Origin: a virus
Lineage: Duplodnaviria > Caudoviricetes
DNA length: 64,000 nucleotides
Direction: 5' to 3' (one strand)
Virus record (IMG/VR): IMGVR_UViG_3300034989_000047
Span: 1-64,000 of that record
Made by a program: the position numbers and the translations under genes. The notes below the pieces were generated by a model that was not told the DNA's origin, made no database searches, and saw only the letters and a program-made list of their open reading frames with translations. Numbering within the stretch: position 1 is the stretch's first letter; each line of letters begins with the position of its first letter. This document shows, piece after piece, positions 1 through 16,087 of this stretch.

Positions 1-271
1 AAATCTTAAGGGCTTGTTTTGTCGATTTCCTGTATAGTGGTGCAGGGGATTGGGGAGAAAACGCCTAAAACGACCCTTTAACTATTCCAGATATTTGGGC
101 TAAAAATGGGGATTGACGTCATTGGGGGGATGTGGGCAATGACGGGGAAGAAATATGCTGATTTTCCGCTTTATGTTGCCCATTTTGACAATACTTGTAG
201 GCTATTGATATTATTGCCGAATTCCCGAAATACCTTGGTATTGTAATTTATAACAAAGATAGGTGCTGTGA

Positions 272-389
272 AATGAGACACTTTTTTGGAATCTAATGAT
301 TTCGAGGGTTTACGCGATTTGGGTGCCAATTTGCCCTATAGGGGAAACACCCAAAACTTCCCTTCGAAATCGTCCAAAAGTGTCTCATT
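272..389. repeat. Long imperfect inverted repeat / stem-loop
   Basis: Nested arms: AATGAGACACTTTT..TGGA / TCCAAAAGTGTCTCATT, GATTTCGAGGG / CCCTTCGAAATC, TTTGGGTG / CACCCAAA, with CCCTATAGGG in the loop. Confidence 0.85.
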
Positions 390-565
390 ATTTTCTTGAC
401 AAAACCTGCCCCATTAATTGTCAGGTTGGCATGTTTCTTGACAGAACCCTATTCCAATGCCATCAAATCCAATGATAATAGGTACTTAGACTTGATTTCG
501 ATTGCTTAAAACCTTATATTGTCCCTATGATTGATGATAATATCATTAATTCTAAAGGAGGGACC

Positions 566-904
566 ATGACGCGAAATGAGATTTTCCGAAAAATGATTTC
601 TTGGGCTAAAGAGGAAGGATCGTCCAAATCATTCCTGACCGTAATTCAATTTACGCAATTTTTGCCGGACGGATGCACCGCTGATATTATCGAACTGTCT
701 CCCGAGATATTGACGCCAAAAGGACGCTTGTGTGCCCCTGTCCGCCGCGCTATTGACGCCATTATCAAAAATAAGAATGATTTTACGATTCAAGAGATTC
801 TGGCGAGTGATTTTTCTCCCGATGCCGATCACCCCCTGTACCAATATGATGCCCGCTCCCCTGGACAATTCGGACGCCTCCCCGACGATCCTTCCGATTT
901 CTAA
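566..904 (+). CDS. Hypothetical protein
   Basis: ORF 527..904; AAAGGAGG RBS precedes ATG at 566; no recognised motif. Confidence 0.65.
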   Translation: MTRNEIFRKMISWAKEEGSSKSFLTVIQFTQFLPDGCTADIIELSPEILTPKGRLCAPVRRAIDAIIKNKNDFTIQEILASDFSPDADHPLYQYDARSPGQFGRLPDDPSDF

Positions 905-935
905 GCACCCTACCTACCTCGTAATACTCTGACAT

Positions 936-1032
936 ACCCCTGCCTACAGGGGTGCAAGGTGCCCCACCTTGTCCTACATGTAGGATGCCCCTCCGATTCG
1001 CGGGGGAAAACGCGCCGGGGAGGGGGATCCCC
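936..1032. repeat. Cluster of abutting palindromes/hairpins
   Basis: ACCCCTG-ccta-CAGGGGT (936-953), CAAGGTG-ccc-CACCTTG (955-971), TCCTACATGTAGGA (972-985), GGGGATCCCC (1023-1032). Confidence 0.8.
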
Positions 1033-1111
1033 TAGAGAGACATATAGGGATAGACTATATAGGGGATATATAGATAGACACTCATTCGATCACCTTCTAG
1101 GGGATTCATTA

Positions 1112-1288
1112 GTTTATTCTTGACAGGGTTTTTACTTGACTCGCGTATTTCGACCTATTCCCTACCCCCTCTATTCCACTACTTAATATTCGGACTATGT
1201 GGTTTATTCTTGACATCCAATCCATTAATCTACCCCTGCAATGCCCTGTTCAAAATAAAGATGCGATTCATTTGGTTTATTCTTGACA
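1112..1288 (+). repeat. Three copies of GTTTATTCTTGACA (contains -35 consensus TTGACA)
   Basis: Exact copies at 1112-1125, 1202-1215 and 1275-1288. Confidence 0.85.
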
Positions 1289-1414
1289 ATGGAAATATGT
1301 CTTGCCTGATGGGTTTGCCACAGCATATCGTACCTATCCTATCTGGGGGGTATGCACTACCAATACTCAATTATGTATTACATTCTTTGGGGGGATGCTA
1401 CGGGTTAAGGTGCT

Positions 1415-1690
1415 TTTCGCCCTTTATTTATAGGGGGTATATGACGTGCCTACCCTGCCAAAGGGCCTGTCCCTATTGCTCTAAATGATGTTGCCGGCTA
1501 ATGCTCGTACCCCTATTTCGCCCTTTATCCATAGGGGGTATATGAGATACGTATACCCTCCATACTACTATGGATATTGACTCAAAGTCAGATTAGTTGA
1601 TTTTAATCAATCTCTATATCGTCCTTTATTCATAGGGGGTATATGATGATCGTAATTCACTATCGTCCTTTATTCATAGGGGGTATACGA
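1415..1690 (+). repeat. Four 30-bp direct repeats TWTCGYCCTTTATYYATAGGGGGTATAYGA
   Basis: Copies at 1415-1444, 1516-1545, 1617-1646 and 1661-1690; partial fifth copy at 1795-1809. Confidence 0.9.
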
Positions 1691-2293
1691 AGATTTTTTA
1701 TGTGCCCCCTACCACATGTATGATTATGCCTTGTCAAGGCTTTCTGCATGGGCACACAAACATGGAATCTAGAAATCATAGGTCTAGGCCAATGTTCATA
1801 GGGGGCATAGCCTGGGCATACTGGTCGTTACGGTCAGGTCAGGCTTATATACCCCAATAGAATTAGGGGCTGTGGCGCATTGGCTTTGGTTAGGTTTAAC
1901 CTTTAAGTGCGGTATTTGGCTGCGGTGGGCCACCCTACAGTTTCGCTGGGAGGGGGCTGGTGGAGGCGTGCAGTCTGAGGGGGGTATGCAGTCAGAGATG
2001 GTTAATTGGTGGTAGTGGTGGTGTGGGTAGTAGTATGTGGAAGGTTGGGGTAATTATCTGTAGTTAGGGGGAGATTGGGGGGAGAGGTTGTTATTGGGGG
2101 AGAGGTTGTTATGGGGGGAATGTGTAGGGACGGGGGGGGAGAGGGTTCTCTAGGTGTGTTGGGGGGAATGGTTTGGGAGTATCCTAGTTATGTTAATGTT
2201 ATTAGATGTTTGTGTGGAGTATTTACATTTGATGATACTTAATGTATGTTATGTCGATTTAATGTTTATATTCTAAACCAAATAAAGGAGGTT

Positions 2294-2665
2294 ATGATGA
2301 GTCCGAAAATTAGTGTAGATAATATTGCTTGGATTGCCCATGAGGTTGAATGTATGTATTGTGTAGTGATTGGGAAGCGGGTAGAAGCTGGGTGGGAATA
2401 TTTGGATAAGGAGAGTATCAAAGATATTAAAGAGGGGGTTAAGTTTATAATCGAGAACCCGGAATTAACGCCTAAGGTTATGCACAAGATGTGGGTAGAG
2501 AAGATGGAGAAGGAGGGTTGGAAGTACGGGCCTAAGGTAGATATGGAGGCGAAGGTTCATCCGGATTTAGCGGAGTACGGAGCGCGTCCTAGGTGGATGA
2601 GGATGAGGGACCAGTTAGTTAGCGTTACGATTAGGACGTTGTTAGGTATAGGGGTAGATGAGTAA
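2294..2665 (+). CDS. RyR-domain protein (array copy 1)
   Basis: AAAGGAGG RBS; motif HKMWVEKMEKEGWKYGPKVDMEAKVHPDLAEY..RD. Confidence 0.85.
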   Translation: MMSPKISVDNIAWIAHEVECMYCVVIGKRVEAGWEYLDKESIKDIKEGVKFIIENPELTPKVMHKMWVEKMEKEGWKYGPKVDMEAKVHPDLAEYGARPRWMRMRDQLVSVTIRTLLGIGVDE

Positions 2666-2880
2666 TGGTTGACCTAGAGATGGTTGGTTATGAGGAGCCC
2701 GAGGATATACCGACGTGTGGTGAGTATTCGGTTTGGACGGATTGCGGATATGAGTTTGATTGTGAGTACGGGCCGCCGTGGAATTGTGAGGAGTGTTTAG
2801 TGAATTGGGATATAGGAGGTGTGTATGATCCCAGGTGTCCGGAGGACTATCGGAGGTATGAAGGAGAAGAGAGTGAGTAG
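2665..2880 (+). CDS. Small acidic Cys-rich protein
   Basis: Overlaps stop/start of both neighbours; 6 Cys including CEEC; very D/E-rich. Confidence 0.7.
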   Translation: MVDLEMVGYEEPEDIPTCGEYSVWTDCGYEFDCEYGPPWNCEECLVNWDIGGVYDPRCPEDYRRYEGEESE

Positions 2881-3242
2881 TGATGAATTCTATTATTAGT
2901 ACCGATGAGATAGCGGTTATAGTTTACGAGGCCACCAGGATTTTTGGTAGTTTCTTTGGGGATGTTGTGTGGCCTAGGGTGGAGGAGGCACCGGAGTGGA
3001 GGCTTAAGGGAGTTAAATTTGGGGTGGAGCGTTTCGTGAAGAATCCGGACATTACTTCAAGGGAGGTGCACAGTAATTGGGTGTGGGAGATGGTATTATC
3101 GGGTTGGAGGTGGGGTAGGGAGTTGGATGTTATTAAGATGACGCATCCCGATTTAGTTGATTATGATCGGTTATCTATTCAGCAGAAGGTTCGATATAGG
3201 TTGACGGAGGTTATAACTAAAACTTTGTTAGGCGCACTATAG
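2880..3242 (+). CDS. RyR-domain protein (copy 2)
   Basis: HSNWVWEMVLSGWRWGRELDVIKMTHPDLVDYDRL. Confidence 0.85.
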   Translation: MMNSIISTDEIAVIVYEATRIFGSFFGDVVWPRVEEAPEWRLKGVKFGVERFVKNPDITSREVHSNWVWEMVLSGWRWGRELDVIKMTHPDLVDYDRLSIQQKVRYRLTEVITKTLLGAL

Positions 3243-3249
3243 TGGAGGA

Positions 3250-4038
3250 GTGATGGAATATCTTATTAGTAAAGATGAGATAGCTCATATTGTTTATGAA
3301 GCTGATCGTATTTATCGTAAGGCTTTAGGGGAGAGGCCGCGCCCGGCATGGGAAGGTGCACTTGACTGGGAAGTCCAGATAGCTAAGGAAGGAGTTAATA
3401 CTATTATAAGGAACCCGGAGTATAGTTCTGAGGTAGCTCACGATGAGTGGATGGCTTTCATGAAGGAGCGCGGGTGGACGTACGGTATGAAATTGGACAG
3501 GGAAAGAAAGGAGCATCCAGATATAGTAGAGTATAGAAGGTTGCCTTCGCAGCAGAGGGTACGGGATACGTTAGTTGACGTTTTAGTCAGGACGTTGTTA
3601 GGGAGGGAGACCCGGCTCTCTAGTCGGAGGGCGGTACACTTTAATTTAAATCAGGAGTTAGTAATGAAACCCGTTATCGAGGTAGATGAAATCGCACATA
3701 TTATTTACGAAGTTAATCGTCTTTTTTGCGAGGCGTTGGGGGACCATTCTCAGCCCAGGTGGGCGGACGTACAGAACTGGCAGGTTAAGTCGATTAAGAA
3801 CGGTATAAGTAGAGTTGTGATTAATCCGAGTCTTACGCCCGAGAAGAGTCACAAGAATTGGTTACGGGATATGGAGCTAGACGGTTGGAAGTACGGGGAG
3901 AAGAAGGATGTAGAGAAGAAAGAGCATCCGTGTATGGTGGAGTACGAGAAGTTGCCGGAGGAGCAAAGGGTGAAGGACAAGTTGTTTACGTCCATCGTAA
4001 AGGCGTTGCTGCGTTTTGAGAGTGCGGACGTAGGGTAA
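3250..4038 (+). CDS. Tandem double RyR-domain protein (copy 3)
   Basis: Two full repeats: GWTYGMKLDRERKEHPDIVEY and SHKNW..GWKYGEKKDVEKKEHPCMVEYEKLPEEQRVKD. Confidence 0.9.
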   Translation: MMEYLISKDEIAHIVYEADRIYRKALGERPRPAWEGALDWEVQIAKEGVNTIIRNPEYSSEVAHDEWMAFMKERGWTYGMKLDRERKEHPDIVEYRRLPSQQRVRDTLVDVLVRTLLGRETRLSSRRAVHFNLNQELVMKPVIEVDEIAHIIYEVNRLFCEALGDHSQPRWADVQNWQVKSIKNGISRVVINPSLTPEKSHKNWLRDMELDGWKYGEKKDVEKKEHPCMVEYEKLPEEQRVKDKLFTSIVKALLRFESADVG

Positions 4039-4139
4039 GATTCTACAGGTTTATCAAGTCTTCGTAATTCATTTAGAAGTACGTAGGAAGTCTGCGTTCT
4101 AGGAGTAGAGCTCTGGGTGAGGATATAGGAGGGGTTGGT

Positions 4140-5057
4140 TTAGAGGCAGGTCGGCAGGAGTTGGGCGATATTAATCAGGGTATCGACGCGTTCGGCGAGG
4201 TCTTGACGGTTGATAAGGATAGCGTCTTGTTTTCGTTCTTCGAGTTCGTTGAGGATTTGTTCACGGCCTAGGCCGGCGATGAGTGCGACGCCTCGGAATA
4301 CGAGGGCTTGGTCGTTCACTTCGGGGATAGCCTGTACGTAGTCGTTCGCGAGTTTATCCATAAGCGGGTAGATGACGTTTTGCGAGCAGTTCATCACTTC
4401 GGGGAGGATGAGGTTCACGGAGTAGCAGGTACCGCAGGACTCGACGGGGAGCATAACGGTTGAAGTTTCTTCATTTTTTCCGTGGCAGCAGCGAGCCCAA
4501 ATCCGGTAGCAGCCCGGGGGGACATCGAGTTCTACGTGGTTGATGTATTGACCTGCGGGCGGATAGATTTTGATGCGATAGGCGCCGTGGTAGTATCGGG
4601 TAGAGATTTCGTATCCGGAGCCGGGGGTGGGGGTGGAGAATTGGAGGTCGGAGTCGGTATCGATATTGATGAATTGAGACGGTCCTTTATCGAGGGTTGT
4701 GAGGACGATTTGGTCGTTATCGAAGTCGAGGTTCACATTGATGTTGGTGAAGTAGGCTTTGAGGGCGTTGAAGATTTCGGCTTTGGTGGTGCAGCTGGTT
4801 GTGATGTTAAGGGTTAGGGATGAGGTGTTGGTGGTGATGGTAATGTAGCGACCGGACTGGTCGGGCAGCGGGTAGTTTGACAAGTCGACGGCGGAGGCCG
4901 GGGTAGCGTATCGAGATTTCAGCTGCTCGAGCAGGGGGAAGACGGAGTAGAGTGGGGTGCCGTTGCAATACTGGACGACCAGGTCGAGAAGCCAGCAGTT
5001 GGTGAGAGGCACGCAGTTGTAGTCACGAAGCCAAACGTTCAGGCGAGAAGTTCCCAT
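4140..5057 (-). CDS. Cys-rich hypothetical protein with a central beta-domain resembling a tail-sheath insert
   Basis: 305-aa ORF; AAGGAG RBS upstream on the minus strand; the only convincing minus-strand gene in the window. Confidence 0.75.
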   Translation of the reverse strand: MGTSRLNVWLRDYNCVPLTNCWLLDLVVQYCNGTPLYSVFPLLEQLKSRYATPASAVDLSNYPLPDQSGRYITITTNTSSLTLNITTSCTTKAEIFNALKAYFTNINVNLDFDNDQIVLTTLDKGPSQFINIDTDSDLQFSTPTPGSGYEISTRYYHGAYRIKIYPPAGQYINHVELDVPPGCYRIWARCCHGKNEETSTVMLPVESCGTCYSVNLILPEVMNCSQNVIYPLMDKLANDYVQAIPEVNDQALVFRGVALIAGLGREQILNELEERKQDAILINRQDLAERVDTLINIAQLLPTCL

Positions 5058-5184
5058 AGTGTATCTCCTTGGTTATGGGTTGGTGATGGGGCATGATAGG
5101 ATTTATTCTTTTATTGTGCAAATGTATTTGAGGAAGTTTTCGGAAGTTATCCGTGTATTTGGGACTTATGGGCTTTGCAGGTTT

Positions 5185-5225
5185 ATTTTATTGTGTATTT
5201 TATTGTGTATTTTATTGTGTATTTT
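5185..5225. repeat. 12-bp tandem repeat (ATTTTATTGTGT)x3
   Basis: Directly visible in the AT-rich spacer between divergent genes. Confidence 0.9.
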
Positions 5226-5328
5226 TAAGGAGTTATGGAAGTTAATAATATTTGATAAAAATTTATGTGCGTGTTACTATAATTATATTCGATTAATTCG
5301 GATAACAACCAAGGCAAGGAGGGAACCA

Positions 5329-5547
5329 ATGCACTATTGTTGCGGGGATTATGTCATTATCCCTAGTTGTGACGACAGATTTATCGTTGTTGCGAGGTCT
5401 AGGTGGCATGACTATCTGGAGGCAGATATTTTGCTGTCCGCAGACAGTTTACGAAGAGCAGTAAAGTGGGTTGACCGTGCGGTTAGGATTGACTTAGGGA
5501 TTACTAGCAGAGGCTTCGTAAATGGATATGAAGTCTGTAGGCTTTAG
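5329..5547 (+). CDS. Small hypothetical protein
   Basis: AGGAGG RBS before ATG at 5329; the upstream part of ORF 5059 crosses repeat DNA and is probably non-coding. Confidence 0.55.
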   Translation: MHYCCGDYVIIPSCDDRFIVVARSRWHDYLEADILLSADSLRRAVKWVDRAVRIDLGITSRGFVNGYEVCRL

Positions 5548-5620
5548 CTAGAAGGGATCATCGAGTCTTTAAAGGATAATTGATTATCCTTTAATTAATA
5601 CAGGAAGGAGGTTTGTAACC

Positions 5621-6541
5621 ATGACTACAAACCGAGTTGAAGAAGAAGTAGTGGAGTTCGAAATAACTCCTAGGCAGTTAGAAGAATATAGCTCCAGGTA
5701 TGAGAGAGTCATGATAGATCTTATATTTAATAAGAAGATCATGGATAGCTTGGGGCGAATGCTTATTGAGCGGGTGGAGGGGGTGCAGGCTTATAATCAG
5801 TATATGGAGTTCACTGGCAGGTTGGATTTTGTTTTACTTATGATGGAGGTCATAGGCAAAACCGTTGAATGGAAGTCGTTAGAAATTTTAGAGCTTCCGA
5901 GTGAGGAGGCGGTTAAGAATGCTATGACTGTCACTGCCGAGATATTGAGTTGTCCGGGCAAATCTGTTCGAAGCATTAGTAGTAGCGTATGGAAGAGCTT
6001 CGATGAAATATCCCGTCGGGAGCAGGCACGGTACTTGCTTCTGGACCTAATGATTAAGGAAGTATGTAAGTTTCCTTATCGAGTAAAGACCGAAGTGGAG
6101 CCAAAAGTAACGGAGGATATGCGTTTATTATTCTATCGACTATTACAAATACAGAATACGCCGAGGGATCGCTCAATTAAGGATGCTCCCGGAGTCCCGG
6201 TAGTGTCACGTATTCATACTCTTATATGGTTGATGGCCAAGCTTTTACGGGTGGTGTCCAGTTCGAGGCCAAAGCCATTGACCCGGGATTTTGTGGTGGG
6301 ATATTCAACGGAGGTTTTGCGTATTTTGGAAAACCCTCTTAGGGGGCAAGAGGAGAGGTATCTTAGGAGAGTTAAAGAACTAACTAAAGATGGGTGGACT
6401 TTAGGTAATAGAGTTGACGTAGGGAGGAAGACAACTCCCTGGTTAATACCTTTTGAGGAGGCCCCGGTTGCCGCATTGCAACGAGACCGGGTAATGTGGG
6501 CGATTGTTTTATTGATTATCGGGTATTACGAGTGTTTTTAG
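5621..6541 (+). CDS. Long degenerate RyR-domain protein (copy 4)
   Basis: C-terminal DGWTLGNRVDVGRKTTPWLIPFEE..RD; paralogous over its length to the next two genes. Confidence 0.8.
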   Translation: MTTNRVEEEVVEFEITPRQLEEYSSRYERVMIDLIFNKKIMDSLGRMLIERVEGVQAYNQYMEFTGRLDFVLLMMEVIGKTVEWKSLEILELPSEEAVKNAMTVTAEILSCPGKSVRSISSSVWKSFDEISRREQARYLLLDLMIKEVCKFPYRVKTEVEPKVTEDMRLLFYRLLQIQNTPRDRSIKDAPGVPVVSRIHTLIWLMAKLLRVVSSSRPKPLTRDFVVGYSTEVLRILENPLRGQEERYLRRVKELTKDGWTLGNRVDVGRKTTPWLIPFEEAPVAALQRDRVMWAIVLLIIGYYECF

Positions 6542-6584
6542 AAGGTTGAGAAGAAATGTTATAAAGAAAGGGAGGTTTGTATTT

Positions 6585-7505
6585 ATGGATGCGACTGTAA
6601 ATGAAGAAGAGGTATTGGGAGTTGAGTATACAAAGGAACAGTTGGATGAGTATCGGAGGGATTCCGAGGGGATTATTCTTAATGTGTTGGACGACCAGGA
6701 GTTTATAACAGGGATATGGAAGAAGTTGGCGTGTTCGCCTATTGGGGGTGCTGCTTGTGACCAATTTATGTGCATGATTAATTGCCCGGATTTGATTATG
6801 TTATTGTTGAGGGTCATCGAAAAGACGGCTGAGTGGGAAGACCCAGGGCCGTTGAGGCCTGTAAGTGCCGAGACTGTAAGGTACACCCTAAGGATGCTTT
6901 CCGAAATTCTGAGTAATCCGGAGAAGTCGGTTCGGGAGTTGGATAGCAGTGAAGTGGGGACATTCTCTGAGTGGCCAGAGAGGATACAGGTGAAGTATTT
7001 ATTTTTTGAGTTGTTGATTAAGCAAAGATTTAATTTGCCCCGCAAGCCGGTAAGCCGGGAGACCCTTGTGTTGAGTCGGAGGGCTTGTGATTTGATGGGC
7101 CGCATGAAGGGGGTTACGATCATGCAGCAGTTAGGCTCATTACAAGGAGTTCTTGGGTTAGACGTTCTCTTGAGAATGCATACCATAATGGGCCTTATGG
7201 CTAAGATATTCAATGCTAATCCTATTTATATGTACACTCCTTTGTTACCCAGGTTTGCGGTTGGCTATGCGATAGACGTTCTCCAGGTCTTATCAAGTTT
7301 AAGGCTTTCTGTAGAGCAGAGGCATAACCGTAGAGCTGAGGGGCTATTGGATGCTGGGTGGAAGTCGGGTAAGGTGCTTGATATAGATAATAAGATTACT
7401 CATATAGTTGACCCCTTTTCAAAGTTGTCCGGGAAGATTCAGCAGAGAGAAATACTGATGGAAGCTGTAGTGTTCACCCTAGCGGGGCTAGGGCAGTATA
7501 TCTAA
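6585..7505 (+). CDS. Long degenerate RyR-domain protein (copy 5)
   Basis: GGAGG RBS; HNRRAEGLLDAGWKSGKVLDIDNKITHIVDPFSKL. Confidence 0.8.
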   Translation: MDATVNEEEVLGVEYTKEQLDEYRRDSEGIILNVLDDQEFITGIWKKLACSPIGGAACDQFMCMINCPDLIMLLLRVIEKTAEWEDPGPLRPVSAETVRYTLRMLSEILSNPEKSVRELDSSEVGTFSEWPERIQVKYLFFELLIKQRFNLPRKPVSRETLVLSRRACDLMGRMKGVTIMQQLGSLQGVLGLDVLLRMHTIMGLMAKIFNANPIYMYTPLLPRFAVGYAIDVLQVLSSLRLSVEQRHNRRAEGLLDAGWKSGKVLDIDNKITHIVDPFSKLSGKIQQREILMEAVVFTLAGLGQYI

Positions 7506-7537
7506 GCAGTCTATCGACAGAATAAGTAACATTATAG

Positions 7538-8464
7538 ATGGAGGGTACGGGCATGAACGGTAAGAAAGTCGTTGGGTTGGAGTTTACACCCGTTCAGCTG
7601 GCAGACTATAGGTTGCACGCCAGACGGTTGATATTAGAAGTGGTGGCTGATTCTAAGTTTATGGAGGGTATTTGGAGTAAGCTGTTGAGTTATCCTGGGG
7701 CATTTGCCTTGGAAAGTTTCATTAGGTTTACTGAAGCTCCGGAAGACTTGCTTTTGGCATTGGAAGTTATGGGTATGACCATCAATGGTTTGGAGTTGGG
7801 TGTATTAAGAAATGTAAGTCGTGAGGGTATACGTAATGTATTTTCGGCAACGGCCAGTATGGTATGTAGTCCTGGAGGTACCGTTAGGGATGCTTGCGAA
7901 GAGATAGCTCCGCCATTCTATTGTTGGCCACACAGGGTTAAGGTTCAGTATTTGTTTCTTGGGCTACTTTTTAAAGAGAAATTCGGTATCCCTTATACCT
8001 TTAGAGCCATTGAAACCACGGAAAATAATAATAGGATTAATCGGTTAGCTTCGGACATATCCGGGGTTATGAGGATACCGGACGAACTTTCCATTGAGGG
8101 AGTTCCGGGGATAGAGTACTTATTGAGGGTGCACACGCTTCTTGGGCTGTTAGCAAGCATTTTTCAGAGCAACCCTTCGTATATTAATACACCGTTAACT
8201 GTGCCTTGTGCTAAGGGTTATGCTGTGGATATGCTGAGGTTGTTGAAGGACTTTAATAGGACTGATGAAGATTTGCATGACGAGAGAGTTGCGGGTCTGT
8301 CTGCTTCTGGGTGGGTTTATGGCAAGGAGTCGGATTATGAAAAGAAGGTTAGTTCTATGTTAGTGCTCTATTACAAACTCCCTGATTTGATTAAAACTCG
8401 CGACAGGTTATTTAGGGCTATCGTTTTAACGTTGGTTGGCTTGGGGGAATATATTCAGAGTTAG
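7538..8464 (+). CDS. Long degenerate RyR-domain protein (copy 6)
   Basis: HDERVAGLSASGWVYGKESDYEKKVSSMLVLYYKLP..RD. Confidence 0.8.
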   Translation: MEGTGMNGKKVVGLEFTPVQLADYRLHARRLILEVVADSKFMEGIWSKLLSYPGAFALESFIRFTEAPEDLLLALEVMGMTINGLELGVLRNVSREGIRNVFSATASMVCSPGGTVRDACEEIAPPFYCWPHRVKVQYLFLGLLFKEKFGIPYTFRAIETTENNNRINRLASDISGVMRIPDELSIEGVPGIEYLLRVHTLLGLLASIFQSNPSYINTPLTVPCAKGYAVDMLRLLKDFNRTDEDLHDERVAGLSASGWVYGKESDYEKKVSSMLVLYYKLPDLIKTRDRLFRAIVLTLVGLGEYIQS

Positions 8465-8498
8465 TCCATAGAATTTATATAGAGAAAGGAAGTAAGTC

Positions 8499-8897
8499 AT
8501 GGGTAAGCCTAAGGCTATGAGTGAAGCCATGCTCATGGGGATACGTGAGTTGGTTATTGTCTGTAAGAACTCGTTGGACGAGGGAGATTACATTTCTAGG
8601 TGGGAGAAATTCGCAGAAGAAGGTTTTGTTGAGTTGCTTTATGAGGAGTACCAGCTGGAAGATGGGGTACTTGATAGGGCTCGGGTTCATGCAGATTGGG
8701 TTGATGAGCAGTTGGCAGACGGGTGGTTTTTAGGAGATATGTTTGATGAGGCTTTGAGAACTGACCCTAATTTGGTTGAGTATGAAAAGTTGTCAAAAAC
8801 AGCTTTGGATCTTGATAAGGCATTTTTTGGGATGGTGTCGGATTATTTGACAATGAAAGGGATAGAAAGGAGGGCAGAAAATGGAGCATCTAACTAG
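8499..8897 (+). CDS. RyR-domain protein (copy 7)
   Basis: HADWVDEQLADGWFLGDMFDEALRTDPNLVEYEKL..D. Confidence 0.8.
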   Translation: MGKPKAMSEAMLMGIRELVIVCKNSLDEGDYISRWEKFAEEGFVELLYEEYQLEDGVLDRARVHADWVDEQLADGWFLGDMFDEALRTDPNLVEYEKLSKTALDLDKAFFGMVSDYLTMKGIERRAENGASN

Positions 8898-9378
8898 GGG
8901 TCTTGTAAACAGTAATGGTTCTTCTGTGTTTGAGGGGTTGACGGCTTTGCTTAAGGGTAAGGTTTGTACGACGTACATTGAAGGGAGGTTTAATGCCCTT
9001 GAGGGCGATGAAGAAAAGATGGCTCAGTTTACGTATGTGGTTTCAAAGTTGGACAAGATTCGGTTGATTTTGGAATTACTCAATCTCACTATGGAGGAGA
9101 AGTCGATAGGTGATTTTAGTCCTATCGGACAAGAAGAGCTTATTAATACTATGAGTTTCTTGGTTGATATGATTCTGAAGCCAAATGTTTCAATAGAAGA
9201 GTTGTATAATGAATTTGTGACTGATATGAAAAGTTCGGGGTGGAGCTTAGGGGAGGAGTTGGATAGGGAAAACAAAATTCATCCGGGTTTAATTTTATTT
9301 AAGGATCTTCCATATTCCGTGAGGGCGAGTTATCTAACTTTCGAAGCTGTAGTCAGAATTTTATTGGAGATGAAATGA
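8881..9378 (+). CDS. RyR-domain protein (copy 8)
   Basis: SGWSLGEELDRENKIHPGLILFKDLP. Confidence 0.8.
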   Translation: MEHLTRGLVNSNGSSVFEGLTALLKGKVCTTYIEGRFNALEGDEEKMAQFTYVVSKLDKIRLILELLNLTMEEKSIGDFSPIGQEELINTMSFLVDMILKPNVSIEELYNEFVTDMKSSGWSLGEELDRENKIHPGLILFKDLPYSVRASYLTFEAVVRILLEMK

Positions 9379-9941
9379 CAGATAAAAGAAAGAAGGAATG
9401 GGTTCCATACATTATGCAAAGGGATAAGGGGGCTAAGTTTAGGCTATTAAGCAGCAGTCTTCCGACCGAGGAGGTGGAGAAGATTAAAAAGTTTATGGAA
9501 ATGGTTATGGAGGACAACGGGATTGCCGAGGGGTCAGATGAATATAATATTATTATGGGCCGATGTATACACCAGGAAAGGTTGGTTTCAAAGATTTTCA
9601 TGATATTGAGGGTGTTTGAAAGTCTTGTTACGGATGACGAAGAGATTATGTATAGGGAGCTGACTCCGGAGAGGTATGCGGTATATACCAGCAATGTAGT
9701 AGATATAGTTGCTCACCCCGAAGAGGGGGCTAAAGATAGGCATGAAAGATATCGGCGGAAGATGCTGGCTGGGGGTTGGAAGTTCGGGGTTAAGTCAGAT
9801 GTGAAGAATAAAGTCAGTGCCCTTTTAGTTCCGTATGAGTCTTTGGATAAACAGTTACGCATTTTTAATTTATTTTTTGAGATGATAGTTAGATTGGTAT
9901 TCAAGATGAAAATATATGAGGTTATTTATGAAGAACAATGA
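9375..9941 (+). CDS. RyR-domain protein (copy 9)
   Basis: HERYRRKMLAGGWKFGVKSDVKNKVSALLVPYESL. Confidence 0.8.
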   Translation: MTDKRKKEWVPYIMQRDKGAKFRLLSSSLPTEEVEKIKKFMEMVMEDNGIAEGSDEYNIIMGRCIHQERLVSKIFMILRVFESLVTDDEEIMYRELTPERYAVYTSNVVDIVAHPEEGAKDRHERYRRKMLAGGWKFGVKSDVKNKVSALLVPYESLDKQLRIFNLFFEMIVRLVFKMKIYEVIYEEQ

Positions 9942-10323
9942 AAGCACGGAGTTTCGAAAGATTAGGCTTAAGGAGTTCGCGGGGGCTGTATCGGATATAA
10001 TGCAAAGGGCCGGTTGGCTGATAACCGGAAGGGACGTGCTGCCTTATGACGCAGCACACAGTCAAGAAGTTTATGAGGCCTACACGGGTCTCGTAAAAGA
10101 ATTTATTAAAGACCCATTGGCAACTTTGAGGGGCATGTACGAGGCGTCTCGAAAGGATAAGGTTGCTGAAGGATGGGTTTATGGAGAAGAATTTAATGAA
10201 GCCAAAAAAACCAGTCCGCAAATGGTGCCATACGATGAGTTAGACCCGTTCGTTAAGTCTATGGATAAAGTATTAGAGACAGTGTTGAAGTCTGTAGCAG
10301 TTATGGTTAAGAAAGAGGAATAG
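9928..10323 (+). CDS. RyR-domain protein (copy 10)
   Basis: KVAEGWVYGEEFNEAKKTSPQMVPYDELDPFVKSMD. Confidence 0.85.
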   Translation: MKNNESTEFRKIRLKEFAGAVSDIMQRAGWLITGRDVLPYDAAHSQEVYEAYTGLVKEFIKDPLATLRGMYEASRKDKVAEGWVYGEEFNEAKKTSPQMVPYDELDPFVKSMDKVLETVLKSVAVMVKKEE

Positions 10324-10327
10324 GAAT

Positions 10328-10738
10328 ATGGAAAAGGAGTTTTCATCTAGGGCGATCGATGATTTAGAGGTAACAAACGCTAGGGGTCTTTTCTTGGCTC
10401 ATGTTTTTCGGGAGTTGATGTCAAAGGTGAGACTTCTAGTGCATGGGGAGGAGATTGAAAGGCATGAGCCAGGGTCAGAAGCTGATTTAAAGTCTTTAAT
10501 CGGTTATGTTGAGTTAATTAAAATTGTTGCGAAAACCCCGAGTCAATCCATGAAGGAGGTACATGAAGAATGGTTTGAAAGGAAGGTTAAAGAGGGGTGG
10601 GTTTATGGGGAGAGGCATAACGAAGAGAAGAAGATGAGTCCAAGAATTTTGCCGTACGACCAGGCAGTAGGTAGCATAAAGTCTATAGATAAAATATTTG
10701 AGTTGTCTGTAAGGGCATTGCTGTATAAAGGAGAATAG
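10328..10738 (+). CDS. RyR-domain protein (copy 11)
   Basis: HEEWFERKVKEGWVYGERHNEEKKMSPRILPYDQ..ID. Confidence 0.85.
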   Translation: MEKEFSSRAIDDLEVTNARGLFLAHVFRELMSKVRLLVHGEEIERHEPGSEADLKSLIGYVELIKIVAKTPSQSMKEVHEEWFERKVKEGWVYGERHNEEKKMSPRILPYDQAVGSIKSIDKIFELSVRALLYKGE

Positions 10739-10739
10739 A

Positions 10740-11174
10740 ATGATGGATGTACAAGCCATTATGGCGACAGATGAAACTAGTTTAAGGGTGTTAAGGATAA
10801 TTCATGAGGTTATGCACAAGTTTGAATGGATTCTTACCGGGAATCCCGACTCGTTAGTTTGCGAGCCTGATGAAGATGATTTCATTTCATATTTGAATAT
10901 TATGGTGAGGTTTGACCAAGACCCTACATATTCGATGAGAAAGCGTCATGAGGAGTGGCTTAAATTGAAGGTTGACGAGGGGTGGAGATATGGGAAGAAA
11001 GAAGATGAGGCGAATATGGTTGACCCCTGCATACTTCCGTATGATGAGCTTCCATACGTAATACGGGCTATGGATGAGCTTTTTGAGACTCTGATAAAAG
11101 CAATATATGCGTCGGGTAAAATTTCAGTGGTTCATCATAGTAGTGCTGATAAGGATACCCGTACATTGCATTAG
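10740..11174 (+). CDS. RyR-domain protein (copy 12)
   Basis: HEEWLKLKVDEGWRYGKKEDEANMVDPCILPYDELP..MD. Confidence 0.85.
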   Translation: MMDVQAIMATDETSLRVLRIIHEVMHKFEWILTGNPDSLVCEPDEDDFISYLNIMVRFDQDPTYSMRKRHEEWLKLKVDEGWRYGKKEDEANMVDPCILPYDELPYVIRAMDELFETLIKAIYASGKISVVHHSSADKDTRTLH

Positions 11175-11242
11175 GTTATGGTTGTGCGCACCTAGGCGGT
11201 TGTGCTAAGTCGCACGGATATGTTTTGTTTGGAGGCAGAATT

Positions 11243-11668
11243 ATGATATATAAGCCAGATTTAAAGGCCCTGCAAAGTTTGATTGTAGCTTCATGGGATA
11301 TATCTGATTGTAAGTTGGGCAAGGATAGAGTGTATGTTTATAAGATATTGAAGGTACTTTTGGATTATGATTTAGTTAAGATAACTAGGTTATATTTAAA
11401 ATATGGTGTAACCTATACAAGAGAATTGCATGCGTGGCTTTTCGATATAGTACTTTCTACGGTTTCAAAGTTCTGTCTTGAGAATGCTAACTATGTTTGG
11501 TTTCTAGTTACAGATATTTTGCTTGAAATTCTTCAGGGTGTTCATAGGGATATTCAGATTAAGCTGGGGTATATTCCCTACGATATTTGTTTGACTTTTA
11601 TGGTTAGAACAATTAGGGATACTGTGGCTTGTATTGACTATTCTAGGTGCTATCTCCTTGCTGATTGA
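11243..11668 (+). CDS. Hypothetical protein
   Basis: GGAGG RBS before ATG at 11243; helical, no motif. Confidence 0.6.
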   Translation: MIYKPDLKALQSLIVASWDISDCKLGKDRVYVYKILKVLLDYDLVKITRLYLKYGVTYTRELHAWLFDIVLSTVSKFCLENANYVWFLVTDILLEILQGVHRDIQIKLGYIPYDICLTFMVRTIRDTVACIDYSRCYLLAD

Positions 11669-12009
11669 CCCCCTATCCTATTCGGATAAATTAAACTAAT
11701 ACTGTAGTTTATAAATTTTCAGGACAAACATGGTTTGGTCTTGAAATCCTATGTAGGCATATTATATTATTATTGTAGTCATTAGAATCTAACCTAATGA
11801 CTATGGATAGGAGATATGCCATAGATATGCACTGTGATATGTCAATACTGGATGATACATCCACTTCACCGACATATTTTGGGATATTATACCCATGTCT
11901 CATGTATATCATCGACAACACATACGATATTACTGTAATATTCACTAAAGATTCCAAGTTATGCTCACATTGCTGACTATTACCGCCAAATTAACCAGTT
12001 ATCATGGTT

Positions 12010-12051
12010 TTAAGTCTTGTAACTCAATTAAAATTACGCATATTATTATTA
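12010..12051 (+). promoter_or_regulatory. Putative promoter motif shared with 13450-13492
   Basis: TTAAGTCTTG-N18/19-GCA(A)TATTATTATTA upstream of the genes at 12099 and 13518. Confidence 0.5.
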
Positions 12052-12098
12052 ATGGATATGTTAATTACACTAAGACGTGTCAGACTACAGGGGATACT

Positions 12099-12377
12099 AT
12101 GATAGATGGGATAATCGATAGAGACCTGGAGCGCGTGTCGTCTGCAATTCATCAATCGGGGGCAAAACCTGCCGCGAGGGTGATGACCACCGCCTCTGCA
12201 TTGCCTTATGCGGATATGGGGCAGCAAAAGAGGCTTCGCAAGGGCAAATGGCTGGTATCATATCTGTGCTCTAGGGGCCCAAGAGATGATTTAGAGAGGG
12301 TTGTGTTACGCGCCGGATACAAAATTCGGAGTAGGTATTCGAACAAATGGAGCCATTTTGTGATCTTCGATGAATAA
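12099..12377 (+). CDS. Hypothetical protein
   Basis: AGGGG RBS before ATG at 12099. Confidence 0.55.
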   Translation: MIDGIIDRDLERVSSAIHQSGAKPAARVMTTASALPYADMGQQKRLRKGKWLVSYLCSRGPRDDLERVVLRAGYKIRSRYSNKWSHFVIFDE

Positions 12378-12410
12378 CCATTAAGATAAGGCAACAAATA
12401 AAGAAAGGAA

Positions 12411-12863
12411 ATGAAAATGTCAAAGCACAAAAAACCAAGTTGGTCATTTACGGCTAATGCCGTTGAAGAGGTGGATGTCAATCGGGTATTGGCTGAAGCT
12501 CCTAAGAGTGCACAATGGGTGGTTATTGCCGACAAGGTTGGCGAGCCAGTATTGTTGTGTATCCGTGAGGAGTATTTGCGGAGGTTCACGGCGGATGACC
12601 GACTTGAAGTGTGTGGGACCAGTCTTCAGAATGGATGGGGGTGTAGATACCTCCCCTATTTCGGACATGAAAACGGGTGCTTGACGGTACCCAAGTGCTC
12701 TTCTTGCTCTGGGAAGCCAGTTCTTGAGGGGTGGAGAGCTTCCGATAACTATATGCACTCACACCCTATGTCGAGGGAGGAGATTCGCCGTATGGCCGCG
12801 ACAGATAACTATGTTCGGAGAATACCTGTACGTGTATATCTTGCGGGGGATTATCATGAATAA
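12411..12863 (+). CDS. Hypothetical protein (Cys-containing)
   Basis: AAAGGA RBS; CSSC motif. Confidence 0.65.
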   Translation: MKMSKHKKPSWSFTANAVEEVDVNRVLAEAPKSAQWVVIADKVGEPVLLCIREEYLRRFTADDRLEVCGTSLQNGWGCRYLPYFGHENGCLTVPKCSSCSGKPVLEGWRASDNYMHSHPMSREEIRRMAATDNYVRRIPVRVYLAGDYHE

Positions 12864-13023
12864 AAAGTATCCAATACCAACCATGGAAGAGCCGGATGAA
12901 GAGCAGCTTGAGGAATGGGTTTATGATTCCGTGTGTGATGCCACTGATGGGTGTACGGTTGAGCCTGATGGGGTATGCCCCCATGGATACCCTTCTTGGC
13001 TCCTTTATCTAGGGCTGATTTAG
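12856..13023 (+). CDS. Small putative metal-binding phage protein
   Basis: CDATDGCTVEPDGVCPHGYPSWL, a recurring small-phage-protein motif; overlaps the previous gene. Confidence 0.75.
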   Translation: MNKKYPIPTMEEPDEEQLEEWVYDSVCDATDGCTVEPDGVCPHGYPSWLLYLGLI

Positions 13024-13033
13024 GAGGTGTAAT

Positions 13034-13447
13034 ATGTCCGAGACTACGTCCATTTTGGAGGAGTTGGTTACGGGCTTTACCTTATTGCGGGCACAGGTTC
13101 CTGAGGGTGTAAAGGCTACAGAAGATTTTCTTCTGGAATACCTAGATCTACGGGCTGGGACGCTAGGGACCCTGATATGTGTCATGAAGCCATCGTGGCT
13201 TCTGTTGAAAGAAATTTTAAGTGTGGACCTGTGTACTCATTATGCAATGCAGGAGAGTTATAAAGATGCTCATATCGAGTACACAGGAATGATTCTTAGT
13301 ACTATTGCCGCACAGGTGTTAATCAGGACATATAGAAATACATATGTACGGACGGACACTTATCGTGATACCAGTTTACGATTCGCGACGAATATTAAAG
13401 ATATGTTAATTGAATATAGACGTATGCCTCATGATAAGTTTTATTAA
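13034..13447 (+). CDS. Hypothetical protein
   Basis: AGGAGGT RBS; no motif. Confidence 0.65.
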   Translation: MSETTSILEELVTGFTLLRAQVPEGVKATEDFLLEYLDLRAGTLGTLICVMKPSWLLLKEILSVDLCTHYAMQESYKDAHIEYTGMILSTIAAQVLIRTYRNTYVRTDTYRDTSLRFATNIKDMLIEYRRMPHDKFY

Positions 13448-13517
13448 GGTTAAGTCTTGCGGTAGTAACAGTTAGTTGCAATATTATTATTAGGACTTGC
13501 GATAGAAAGGACTCAAA

Positions 13518-13874
13518 ATGAAAGTTACAGGGAAACATGTTATAACGCCAATTCCGCAATGTTATTTTTGCGGACAAGACAAGGACCGGAGGTCCAGGGG
13601 GAAGAAAGTACAAGTGGCACGGGCGATACTGGACCATACCCCATGTAAAGACTGCGCCGACATGATGGAGACTGGGATTCTGTTGGTAGAAGTTTCCAAG
13701 GGCTCGACGGCAGAAGTCCCCATATGGAAAGGACAGCAGGTGGCGGTCACCCCCGAGTTTATTGAGGAGGCATTCGACTCAAAAATCGCGAAAAAAGTTC
13801 TCGATGTCAGATTTGCCTTCATTGATGGTGAGGGTTGGGATCTGTTGGGATTGCCCCGGGAGGGTTATGAGTAG
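13518..13874 (+). CDS. Putative Zn-binding hypothetical protein
   Basis: CYFC ... PCKDC; AAAGGA RBS. Confidence 0.7.
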   Translation: MKVTGKHVITPIPQCYFCGQDKDRRSRGKKVQVARAILDHTPCKDCADMMETGILLVEVSKGSTAEVPIWKGQQVAVTPEFIEEAFDSKIAKKVLDVRFAFIDGEGWDLLGLPREGYE

Positions 13875-13986
13875 GAGATGAATTCCCGGTGTATTCCGTT
13901 TTGATTCGAAACGGAATTGGGGGGTACAAATAATTAGTTCCGTGCTAGACACGGTGGAAAAGCAAAGAAAAGAAGCGGAGTGCATC

Positions 13987-14766
13987 ATGAAAACAAAAAA
14001 CACAAAAAACACAAAAAACACAAAAAACACAAAAACAAAAAAAGCGGCATACGGAGTTATTAGTTCTCGTACCATCGCGAAGCCACCGAAAGGAAGTGCA
14101 GGAGGAAACGCCGCAGAGGTCCTCAAGAAGGGGACACCAAGAGTTCGCAAAGTGTCCAAAGTCGTAAAGACAGCGGATGTGGAGACCAAAAAGACGAGGG
14201 TAAAAAAGACGAAGGGAGCCGCGCAGGCCTTCGGGATATTTGAGGTTACCCTTCCCGATGGAAGGGCGATCCAAAGGAGGTTTAAGGCGGGGAAGCAGGT
14301 TGTCGGCGCAATACTCGTTAAGGTGGTCGCCGATGATAGGTGGTACGTTCTGCTCTGGACGTCCAAAGATGATTTGGACAAACGGGCAGAGAAAATATAT
14401 GCCCGTTGGGTGGATGAGGGGTCGGATAAGTTCCAGGAGAAGATATATCACGCGGTGCGAACTACCCGGGAGGTCAGGCTTGTTGGTGAGCAGGAGACCA
14501 AAAAGAAGGTGGAAAGCGAAGACCGGACCGTTCTCAATCGAGTTCGCAAGGGACATCCGAAGCCGACAGAAGTGACGGAGCCGGTAGACAGCGAGGAAGG
14601 AGAGGCGCGATTCATCTCGGCCGAGGAGCTGAACGGAGGGAAGGCATCGAAAAAGACCAAAAAGAAGGCCGCCAAAAAGACCACCTCCAAAAAGACCACC
14701 CCCAAGGCCACCAAGGCCACAAAAGCGAAAAAGACCTCGAAGAAAGGCGTTACGCCCGTAGCGTAG
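13987..14766 (+). CDS. Lys-rich protein with histone-H1-like tails
   Basis: N-terminal (TKN)n encoded by a 9-bp tandem repeat; C-terminal KKTKKKAAKKTTSKKTTPKATKATKAKK. Confidence 0.75.
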   Translation: MKTKNTKNTKNTKNTKTKKAAYGVISSRTIAKPPKGSAGGNAAEVLKKGTPRVRKVSKVVKTADVETKKTRVKKTKGAAQAFGIFEVTLPDGRAIQRRFKAGKQVVGAILVKVVADDRWYVLLWTSKDDLDKRAEKIYARWVDEGSDKFQEKIYHAVRTTREVRLVGEQETKKKVESEDRTVLNRVRKGHPKPTEVTEPVDSEEGEARFISAEELNGGKASKKTKKKAAKKTTSKKTTPKATKATKAKKTSKKGVTPVA

Positions 14767-14786
14767 AAACAACCAAGCAACCAATA

Positions 14787-14812
14787 CCCTAGTGGGGAGA
14801 TTCCCCCTAGGG
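14787..14812 (+). terminator. GC-rich stem-loop directly before an RBS
   Basis: CCCTAG-T-GGGGA-gat-TCCCC-CTAGGG followed by AAAGGAGG; no U-tract, so it may be regulatory rather than a terminator. Confidence 0.45.
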
Positions 14813-14824
14813 AAAGGAGGGGTT

Positions 14825-15940
14825 ATGAAACTTTATTTTGTGATGATGATGATGATGTTATGTGCGTGTTCAGATGATATGTCGGATATTGCCGATGGGG
14901 AGGATGGAGGTGATATGTCTTCGAATGTCGATGGGGATATTGATACGGATACCGACACCGACACGGACACGGATACCGACACGGACACGGACACCGATGC
15001 CGATGCCGATGGGGATACGGATACCGATGCCGATGCCGATGGGGATACGGATACCGACACCGACACGGACACGGACACCGATGGGGATACGGATACCGAC
15101 ACCGACACGGACACGGACACCGATGGGGATACGGATACCGATACCGATGGGGACACCGATACGGACACGGACACGGACACTGACACTGACACGGATACGG
15201 ACATTGATACTGACACCGATGCCGATATGGATACCGATACCGATGCCGATACCGATACCGATGGGGATGCCGATGGGGATATTCCGGTAGATGGGTGGAT
15301 AGAGGGGGAAACGGTGTGCGATGGGAATATCCTATCTGTATGCACATCTTCCGGTTCGGATTGTCGGGCTGTATCTGTAATGGAATGCCCTCGTATGTGT
15401 GTAGCTGGGGCATGTGTTGAGTGCGGCGAGTATTCCGACTGCGAAAACCCGGGAAGGGAGGTGTGTGAGGATGGATATTGCAAAACAGCGGATGGATGGG
15501 CTGAGATTACGCTTGAGCCTACTGTTTTGGAGATAGAGCCTATTGAGCTTATTTTTCGTGGCGGAGCAGTCTTTGATTCAGAGGAATCAAAGGTTGTAAT
15601 ACAGATGGAGTCGATGAACCGGGAGAAATATACCTTTGAGTTGGGCGTCGATACAATTTATAGGTCTTCTGAGATAAACGCCGCGGGTCTACTTATGCTC
15701 AATGGGACACCTGACCCGGATTCTCGTGGGAGTTTTTTTGATTTCAAAATTGAAGATGCGGAGATTACTAGCCTAAGCTATATGTATCCAACAGAAGAAT
15801 TTCACGGAAATATCCCTATCGCGGAAGGAGATATGAGGCCAGGCGGAGAAATTAGTGGGGCAATAAGCGTAAGTACCTGCCCTACGTATCCCAAGTGCTT
15901 CAATTTAAAGGGGAGGTTCTACACAAAGATTCATCTCTAG
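14825..15940 (+). CDS. Putative lipoprotein with Asp-Thr repeat linker and Cys-rich domain
   Basis: MKLYFVMMMMMLCAC lipobox-like signal; ~115 aa of (DT/DA/DG)n; Cys-rich segment CVAGACVECGEYSDC. Confidence 0.8.
   Translation: MKLYFVMMMMMLCACSDDMSDIADGEDGGDMSSNVDGDIDTDTDTDTDTDTDTDTDTDADADGDTDTDADADGDTDTDTDTDTDTDGDTDTDTDTDTDTDGDTDTDTDGDTDTDTDTDTDTDTDTDIDTDTDADMDTDTDADTDTDGDADGDIPVDGWIEGETVCDGNILSVCTSSGSDCRAVSVMECPRMCVAGACVECGEYSDCENPGREVCEDGYCKTADGWAEITLEPTVLEIEPIELIFRGGAVFDSEESKVVIQMESMNREKYTFELGVDTIYRSSEINAAGLLMLNGTPDPDSRGSFFDFKIEDAEITSLSYMYPTEEFHGNIPIAEGDMRPGGEISGAISVSTCPTYPKCFNLKGRFYTKIHL
14927..15280 (+). repeat. Low-complexity 6-bp repeat tract encoding (DT)n
   Basis: GAYACN units with higher-order duplicated blocks. 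Confidence 0.9.
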
Positions 15941-16087
15941 GACACACGCCTTCCCCGTTTTCCTTTTAGATTTTATCCATTAAATTTCTTGTCACTGTTC
16001 GATTCAATTTATTCCCTAATTACTCGCCCAATAATTCTATGTACTCCCCCACGCAACATTAAAAAGAATCCATCAGAACTCAGTCTG

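Follow-up and report, generated by a model that had tools for sequence, protein, structure and literature searches.

A tandem array of diverged RyR-domain genes in an uncultured wetland phage, a candidate anti-signalling multigene family

The question raised by this locus is why a phage should carry a dozen genes for a domain that other phages carry singly. The DNA analysed (the window) comprises the first 64 kb of the 109,495-bp record of an uncultured wetland phage (IMGVR_UViG_3300034989_000047; IMG/VR completeness 100%; G000 below), and between positions 2294 and 11174 it holds 12 co-oriented plus-strand genes, g01 to g12, with 13 copies of the RyR domain, the repeat of ryanodine receptors. 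Only in 2026 were phage RyR proteins shown to act on the cyclic ADP-ribose signals that TIR proteins make, by sequestering or hydrolysing them (PMC13232231; 10.64898/2026.06.04.730250). RyDEP (mycobacteriophage DyoEdafos gp78, PDB 35TM) is a Thoeris-defeating glycosidase that opens 2' and 3' cyclic ADP-ribose (2'cADPR and 3'cADPR; Lopez Rivera et al., bioRxiv 2026, PMC13232231), and six of eight other phage RyDEP homologues bind these signals without cleaving them (PMC13232231); RyR Tad (Pectobacterium phage vB_PatP_CB1 gp68) sequesters 1''-3' glycocyclic ADP-ribose (gcADPR) with a dissociation constant of 43 nM and binds several ADP-ribose (ADPR)-type molecules (10.64898/2026.06.04.730250). 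The link between RyR proteins and ADP-ribose-derived immune signals that had been raised in the original prediction, a note on this DNA made from its letters, is thus real. We read the array as an old multigene family, specific to its lineage, whose products would bind or hydrolyse nucleotide signals as an anti-signalling arsenal; the function is inferred, and we judge the chances of this reading to be evenly balanced.

The RyR genes are listed below, each with its pocket code, which gives the residues at the four main ligand-contact positions (canonically H-W-H-D; RyR Tad adds K and K), and with its scores against the Pfam family PF02026, for which the curated cut-off is 27.4 bits.

g01, 2294..2665, plus strand: single RyR domain, pocket HWHD, PF02026 32 bits
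g02, 2880..3242, plus strand: single RyR domain, pocket HWHY, PF02026 35.9 bits
g03, 3250..4038, plus strand: two RyR domains (g03a and g03b), both HWHD, PF02026 76.3 bits in 2 stretches
g04, 5621..6541, plus strand: long form with C-terminal RyR domain, pocket YRTD, PF02026 E 0.0105, leave-clade-out profile 53 bits
g05, 6546..7505, plus strand: long form, pocket HRTE
g06, 7538..8464, plus strand: long form, pocket HRSD
g07, 8499..8897, plus strand: single domain, pocket HWDD, PF02026 26.6 bits
g08, 8881..9378, plus strand: single domain with short N-terminal extension, pocket YFHY, PF02026 E 1.6e-4, leave-one-out profile 68.5 bits
g09, 9375..9941, plus strand: single domain with N-terminal extension, pocket HYSN, PF02026 25 bits, phrog_5154
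g10, 9916..10323, plus strand: single domain, pocket YSSD, PF02026 32.2 bits
g11, 10328..10738, plus strand: single domain, pocket HWSD, PF02026 34.7 bits
g12, 10740..11174, plus strand: single domain, pocket HWDD, PF02026 37.3 bits

The array domains are RyR/Repeat12 domains. When the 12 proteins were scanned against PF02026 with hmmscan, six scored above the cut-off, three below it (18.9-26.6 bits) and three had no match at E <= 0.01, and a six-frame search of the genome gave 13 matches at E <= 1, seven of them above the cut-off and all within 2474-11117, with none elsewhere in the 109,495 bases of G000. Leave-one-out profiles (leave-three-out for g04-g06) connect the six domains below the cut-off with the others, since each domain scored 31-129 bits against a profile of the remaining ones. 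A profile of all 13 domains, searched against the PDB, retrieved the repeats of RyR1/2/3 (E 4e-30), the Bacteroides thetaiotaomicron RyR protein 3NRT (2.6e-14) and RyDEP (35TM; 3.7e-10). G11, W12 and G15 were invariant in 13/13 domains, with a core motif of G-W-x-[YFLWS]-G. The original prediction, which had described 12 co-oriented genes with 13 domains, a shared motif and an identity with the repeat of ryanodine receptors, was therefore borne out on all of these counts by the open reading frames (ORFs), the profile searches and the alignment. For the three long forms (g04, g05 and g06), which align with one another over their full length, the structural evidence comes from g06, the sole paralogue modelled (AF2; mean predicted local distance difference test score, pLDDT, 66.6): residues 160-306 of the model matched a Bt-hRyR chimera (Z 9.3), Repeat12 of RyR3 (Z 8.3) and the B. 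thetaiotaomicron RyR protein (Z 7.6-7.8; root-mean-square deviation 2.1 over 67 residues), and a Foldseek search with the whole g06 model gave no match at E <= 0.001.

An RyR array is exceptional among phages. A tblastn search of 50,697 isolated phage records with g03b found 299 places in 297 records, so that a single copy is the rule, and a local hidden Markov model that detects 13 domains in G000 found exactly one domain in each of 54/54 other viral loci (up to 10 kb of flank on each side). Among 20 viral records sharing the terminase type of G000 (35-64% identity to the first sequence of the query alignment; eight of the 20 at least 90% complete), PF02026 was detected at E <= 0.01 in none. 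The RyR domain itself is common, the profile matching 8,948 representative proteins; the array is not. A related-locus search started from a four-sequence alignment returned only 3 loci, query P0015 had no match in viral contigs, a scan of metagenomes yielded a single 1,850-bp contig, and near-identical DNA was absent from the isolated phages. Phages with multi-copy RyR arrays are not mentioned in the literature searched, the supplementary homologue lists and trees of PMC13232231, which could bear on the point, lying outside its scope. The expectation that phages elsewhere carry one or a few RyR copies was accordingly upheld, and arrays did not prove common in related phages.

The array is shared by three lineages. 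A sister phage record (G001; 110,050 bp, ~91-93% DNA identity to G000) and a third-lineage contig (L066; 12,310 bp, from a metagenome-assembled genome, MAG) carry it in the same order, and all 13 domains have orthologues in both. Amino acid identity of the RyR genes to those of G000 was 56-97% in G001 and 54-85% in L066, and the terminase was 99.6% identical in G001. Copy number varied at one site, after g03, where G000 has no further gene, G001 an 80-amino-acid mini RyR gene and L066 two genes. Within G000 the paralogues were 13-41% identical to g03b at the amino acid level, and the longest DNA shared among them was 49 nt at 71-73% identity. Because of this low identity and the lack of any DNA repeat longer than 49 nt, we regard the array as an old radiation and not as an accordion; the gene accordion, or recent arms-race amplification, proposed in the original prediction does not agree with these figures, with the orthologues in two other lineages or with the one variable site.

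Trees were built from 180 domains, of which 41 belong to the three lineages and the other 139, the outside domains, are a biased sample taken from the 150 best hits to the array profile; 14 representatives of this lineage, proteins of at least 400 amino acids and 4 short matches were left out. Each paralogue formed its own three-lineage group (support 0.95-1.0), and neighbouring genes clustered together. One clade (0.978) held g01, g02, g03a, g03b and the extra gene of L066, and a second (0.862) held g04-g06 and g08-g12, with g07 apart beside one long outside branch. A quick IQ-TREE run under a site-mixture model with 63 rows gave the same picture together with a long-branch warning. A constraint that held all 15 array rows together was 55 log-likelihood units better than the free quick tree (p-AU, from the approximately unbiased test, 0.96), so a single founder was not rejected. 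Judged from sequence comparison, the array is thus most likely the product of old tandem duplications that started from a single founder or from a few.

Contigs from four other wetland runs covered 30/30 bins of positions 1-14000 and broke into short pieces inside the array, which fits strain diversity. Contig joints at 5806-6411, 7617-8179 and 8268-8389 stem from single contigs whose support is short or of low depth; we read them as divergent alleles and not as proven deletions. The MAG that contains L066 (G027; 3.8 Mb) is labelled an uncultured archaeon, has four TIR_2 ORFs above the cut-off and carries another RyR ORF on contig C80; the binning of L066 may be spurious and is not evidence of a host.

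All array copies are constrained genes, and they change more quickly than the genome at large. Whole-gene ratios of nonsynonymous to synonymous substitution (dN/dS), calculated with our own Nei-Gojobori script, were 0.10-0.64 for the 12 RyR genes against G001 and 0.12-0.36 against L066, except for g01 (0.91), and were well below 1 for 11/12 genes in both comparisons. Against G001, median dN was 0.067 for the RyR genes and 0.006 for 126 other ORFs (p 6e-6), median dS was 0.232 versus 0.094 (p 7e-4), and median dN/dS was 0.196 versus 0.088 in the 98 ORFs with dS > 0.02 (p 3e-4). The most divergent allele between lineages was g06, with 56% amino acid identity to G001 and a dS of 1.16. The fastest-evolving canonical member was g01, which keeps HWHD, shows a higher dN/dS than any other array gene (0.64 against G001, 0.91 against L066) and is 54-76% conserved, reflecting either relaxed constraint or selection outside the pocket.

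The array also departs from other phages in its ligand pockets. The catalytic dyad of RyDEP consists of H75 and D117, with W78 stacking against the adenine and H100 holding the phosphates (PMC13232231), and in RyR Tad the contacts are H129, W132, K147, H154, K170 and D171 (10.64898/2026.06.04.730250). The gp68 record places these six residues at offsets 0, +3, +18, +25, +41 and +42, a register that is identical in the array and matches the RyDEP spacing. The six columns are nearly fixed in the 139 outside domains (H in 137, W in 138, K in 127, H in 134, K in 133 and D in 129), and H-W-H-D is complete in 127/139 of these versus 3/13 array domains (g01, g03a and g03b), so the RyDEP/RyR Tad class label fits only part of the array. 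Within G000, g03b alone keeps all six RyR Tad contact residues. In the other ten domains, between one and all four of the main contact residues are replaced, each paralogue in its own way, and the three lineages agree on these variants except for g06 (HRSD in G000, R-N-G-D in G001 and R-N-S-D in L066) and for one g03b change in L066; in g02, for example, the acid position has gone from D to Y in all three. L066 has one extra gene among the members with a canonical pocket. Across lineages, 63/78 pocket positions and 1,060/1,525 other positions were invariant (Fisher p 0.04). Contact columns that have diversified between paralogues fit different targets.

On these observations we propose that a founder gene, or a small number of them, underwent repeated tandem duplication, giving rise to a family in one myovirus-like phage lineage. 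Members with the RyDEP/RyR Tad pocket (g01, g03a, g03b and the extra gene of L066) would most likely bind, and perhaps hydrolyse, TIR-made signals such as 2'cADPR, 3'cADPR and cADPR, and their capture of these signals would blunt Thoeris-type defence. Whether a member is a glycosidase cannot be read from its sequence, because sponge homologues keep the same residues as RyDEP (PMC13232231). The ten remodelled domains, with their fold core kept and under purifying selection, would most likely bind other nucleotide-derived ligands: stable and different pockets kept by selection are best explained by different ligands, although they could also mark domains that have lost nucleotide binding and make protein contacts instead. 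A bolder version, possible but on the doubtful side, is that the array is a panel of about ten distinct RyR pockets, each tuned to a different nucleotide immune signal and including unidentified TIR products such as those of Thoeris types X and XI. Eleven Thoeris types with several signals, some of them unidentified, have been described, and a few bacteria have six or seven TIR genes (10.64898/2025.12.03.692087). If the bolder version were true, one phage could silence a whole spectrum of signalling defences, and the array proteins could be used as baits to capture and identify the unidentified signals.

Several observations weigh against the proposal of a signal-binding family. No RyR gene had a whole-gene dN/dS above 1, and the raised dS in the array speaks for a swapping of diverged alleles no less than for selection. 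Across lineages, pocket positions are only modestly more conserved than the rest of the domain (81% versus 70%). Residues whose mutation weakened RyR Tad binding ~100-fold are missing from 10/13 domains, and these ten remodelled domains may bind nothing. The clustering of the divergent paralogues may partly reflect long-branch attraction, and the outside domains are a biased sample. Finally, the surroundings differ from those of RyDEP, whose gene sits in a NARP1 operon for NAD+ reconstitution (Adps plus Namat; PMC13232231): PF04095 (nicotinate phosphoribosyltransferase, NAPRTase; Namat-like) had 0 matches in G000 and matched in 9/14 control genomes, and no NAPRTase was present among 30 further ORFs scanned with Pfam, the Prs-like partner not having been searched for on its own.

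An alternative that we consider unlikely is that only the canonical domains act on immune signals and that the remodelled ones have lost nucleotide binding and act through protein contacts; using the alpha1/alpha4 dimer face, these might pair with one another or with host RyR proteins and so serve as decoys for host effectors or as their dominant-negative partners. The replaced contact residues of the ten domains would suit such a role, as would the dimerisation of both RyDEP and RyR Tad through alpha1 and alpha4 (PMC13232231; 10.64898/2026.06.04.730250) and the extra N-terminal region of g04-g06 (~170 amino acids, helical, preceding the RyR domain), which gave a weak match to the RyR profile (hhalign 86%, E 5e-6) without the binding hairpin. 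The replacements are in the pocket, however, and not in the dimer face, their conservation paralogue by paralogue suits altered ligand choice at least equally, and the g06 model did not confirm that the N-terminus is RyR-like, since residues 21-150 returned only cyclin-like rows (Z 4.2) in the VIA structure comparison.

Distinctly improbable, in our judgement, is a role apart from defence, in which the family senses or buffers adenine nucleotides (ATP, ADP and NAD derivatives) and tunes phage or host metabolism, as proposed for animal Repeat12. The binding of ATP analogues and ADP by Repeat12 of RyR3 (PDB titles; PMC13232231; 10.64898/2026.06.04.730250) and the breadth of ADPR-type molecules bound by RyR Tad speak for it, but both characterised phage members act against Thoeris, and a housekeeping function would predict neither the absence of the domain from all 20 terminase relatives nor fast evolution relative to the genome. 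As for a recent accordion, be it a short-lived amplification driven by acute selection or a group of duplicates in decay, the copy-number difference after g03 (none, one mini gene and two genes in the three lineages) and the precedent for phage gene amplification set by T4 tifA (PMC9391042) would be compatible with it; the age of the paralogues, their orthologues in three lineages and the constraint on nearly all of the genes make it hardly credible. We therefore keep to an old family of nucleotide-signal binders or hydrolases. Its interest lies in what it puts within reach of testing, namely the limits within which the RyR fold can be retuned, its possible reach beyond 2'/3'cADPR, and the nature of the unidentified Thoeris signals: the RyR gene is single-copy with an almost invariant pocket in the other phages examined, and this lineage has 12-14 paralogues with ten stable pocket variants.

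The array does not form one unbroken series. Its genes lie in two tightly packed runs, g01-gC-g02-g03 and (gX)-g04 to g12, in which starts and stops overlap or are a few bases apart, and the RyR block is interrupted by three non-RyR ORFs; the tight packing of the original prediction therefore holds within each run but not across the block as a whole. These ORFs and the region upstream are as follows.

Upstream stretch, 960..2240, no strand assigned: ~1.3 kb without a convincing ORF
Upstream repeats: three copies of GGTTTATTCTTGACA at 1107-1288; four copies of a 45-nt repeat at 1400-1690, with the core CCTTTATT.ATAGGGGGTATA; a G-rich tract
gC, 2665..2880, plus strand: 71 amino acids, Cys-rich, non-RyR
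gM-, 4140..5057, minus strand: 305 amino acids, non-RyR, splits the array
gX, 5059..5547, plus strand: doubtful ORF

The upstream stretch might serve to regulate the first block. In the four wetland runs the contig depth, summed over 1-1868, exceeded that of the array, by up to ~fourfold in three of them. The start and stop codons of gC overlap g01 and g02; the protein, which has six Cys, was more conserved than its neighbours (amino acid identity 96% in G001 and 92% in L066; dN/dS 0.22 and 0.11), had no Pfam or PHROG match and gave an uninformative Atlas search. The only convincing minus-strand gene of the region, gM-, was likewise more conserved than the surrounding RyR genes (98% in G001 and 92% in L066; dN/dS 0.16 in the minus frame) and had no Pfam or PHROG match. 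In its AF2 model (pLDDT 85.8) a body rich in beta structure is joined to a helical bundle at the C-terminus; the fold matches of the model were weak (FliD D2-D3 and sheath-insert folds, template modelling scores 0.27-0.46), and the Atlas score of 0.81 for gM- is a lead only. The gene has 20 homologues, with 40-57% identity in other large phage contigs, and the phages concerned are not relatives of G000 (terminase match in 0/5 records; RyR counts 0, 1, 0, 0 and 0). In three of these loci (L069-L071) the homologue is on the G-rich strand; in G000 it lies opposite the G-rich, gene-bearing strand. The 5' part of gX contains a 12-nt tandem repeat in three copies (5181-5225), contigs of 4/4 wetland runs have a 12-nt deletion at 5184, and gX had no Pfam or PHROG match; the stretch may instead consist of divergent promoters and a shorter gene.

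G000 has a myovirus-like gene set (terminase, portal, tail sheath, tape measure and baseplate) and further encodes PolA, RecA, DNA ligase, ParB, QueC, radical-SAM enzymes and a glycosyltransferase. The two ends of its record share 127 identical bases, a terminal repeat so short that the nearness of the array to the 'end' of the record may be arbitrary. Strand asymmetry is extreme (29% G versus 16% C on the plus strand), with nearly all genes on one strand. No tRNA genes were found in G000 and no Rfam families in positions 1-16000, and scans for promoters and terminators gave nothing above shuffled sequence. The large terminase (16194-18761) has 855 amino acids, and many homologues have ~590 and cover only ~60% of it; others carry Hint or LAGLIDADG domains, and an intein-sized insert is therefore likely. 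The helicase at 68099-70552 of G000 also has a LAGLIDADG domain. At 80151-83874 of G000 (16151-19874 of L076), QueC stands beside two radical-SAM proteins and is followed by a family-2 glycosyltransferase (84732-85514), a cluster that we take to suggest a 7-deazaguanine-type DNA modification pathway. Two ORFs at 13942-15940 contain short tandem repeats, Lys/Thr-rich at 13942-14766 and with a 12/18-nt period at 14893-15323.

Among known systems, RyDEP belongs to the same Pfam family, and the H, W, H and D of g01, g03a and g03b stand at its spacing; it is, however, a single gene in a NARP1 operon, unlike the 12 genes found here, in which ten domains lack part of the dyad or of the contacts. RyR Tad is ~45% identical to g03b by tblastn, with all six contacts identical in g03b, and has an extra N-terminal domain as do g08, g09 and g04-g06; it differs in being a single copy that lies next to the primase of an N4-like podovirus, and the N-terminal domains are unrelated by the tests made. 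Repeat12 of animal RyR and 3NRT share fold and motif with the array, and g03 has two repeats per chain, as does Repeat12, but the array proteins, as predicted from their genes, are small, soluble phage proteins and not part of an ion channel. Viral accordions such as those of T4 tifA and poxvirus K3L also consist of tandem copies of a counter-defence-type gene; they are recent, near-identical and unstable, whereas the array, which keeps its gene order in three lineages, is old and has diverged strongly, with an indel at one site only. A further parallel is with the multigene families of large DNA viruses, in which one immune-evasion fold has radiated into diverged, stably inherited paralogues and which resemble the array as lineage-specific radiations of one fold. 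No such family of RyR domains or of phage signal sponges was found described in the literature searched, and the array would thus be the first example found in a phage of a signal-binding counter-defence fold that has grown into a large and old multigene family, distinct from transient amplification.

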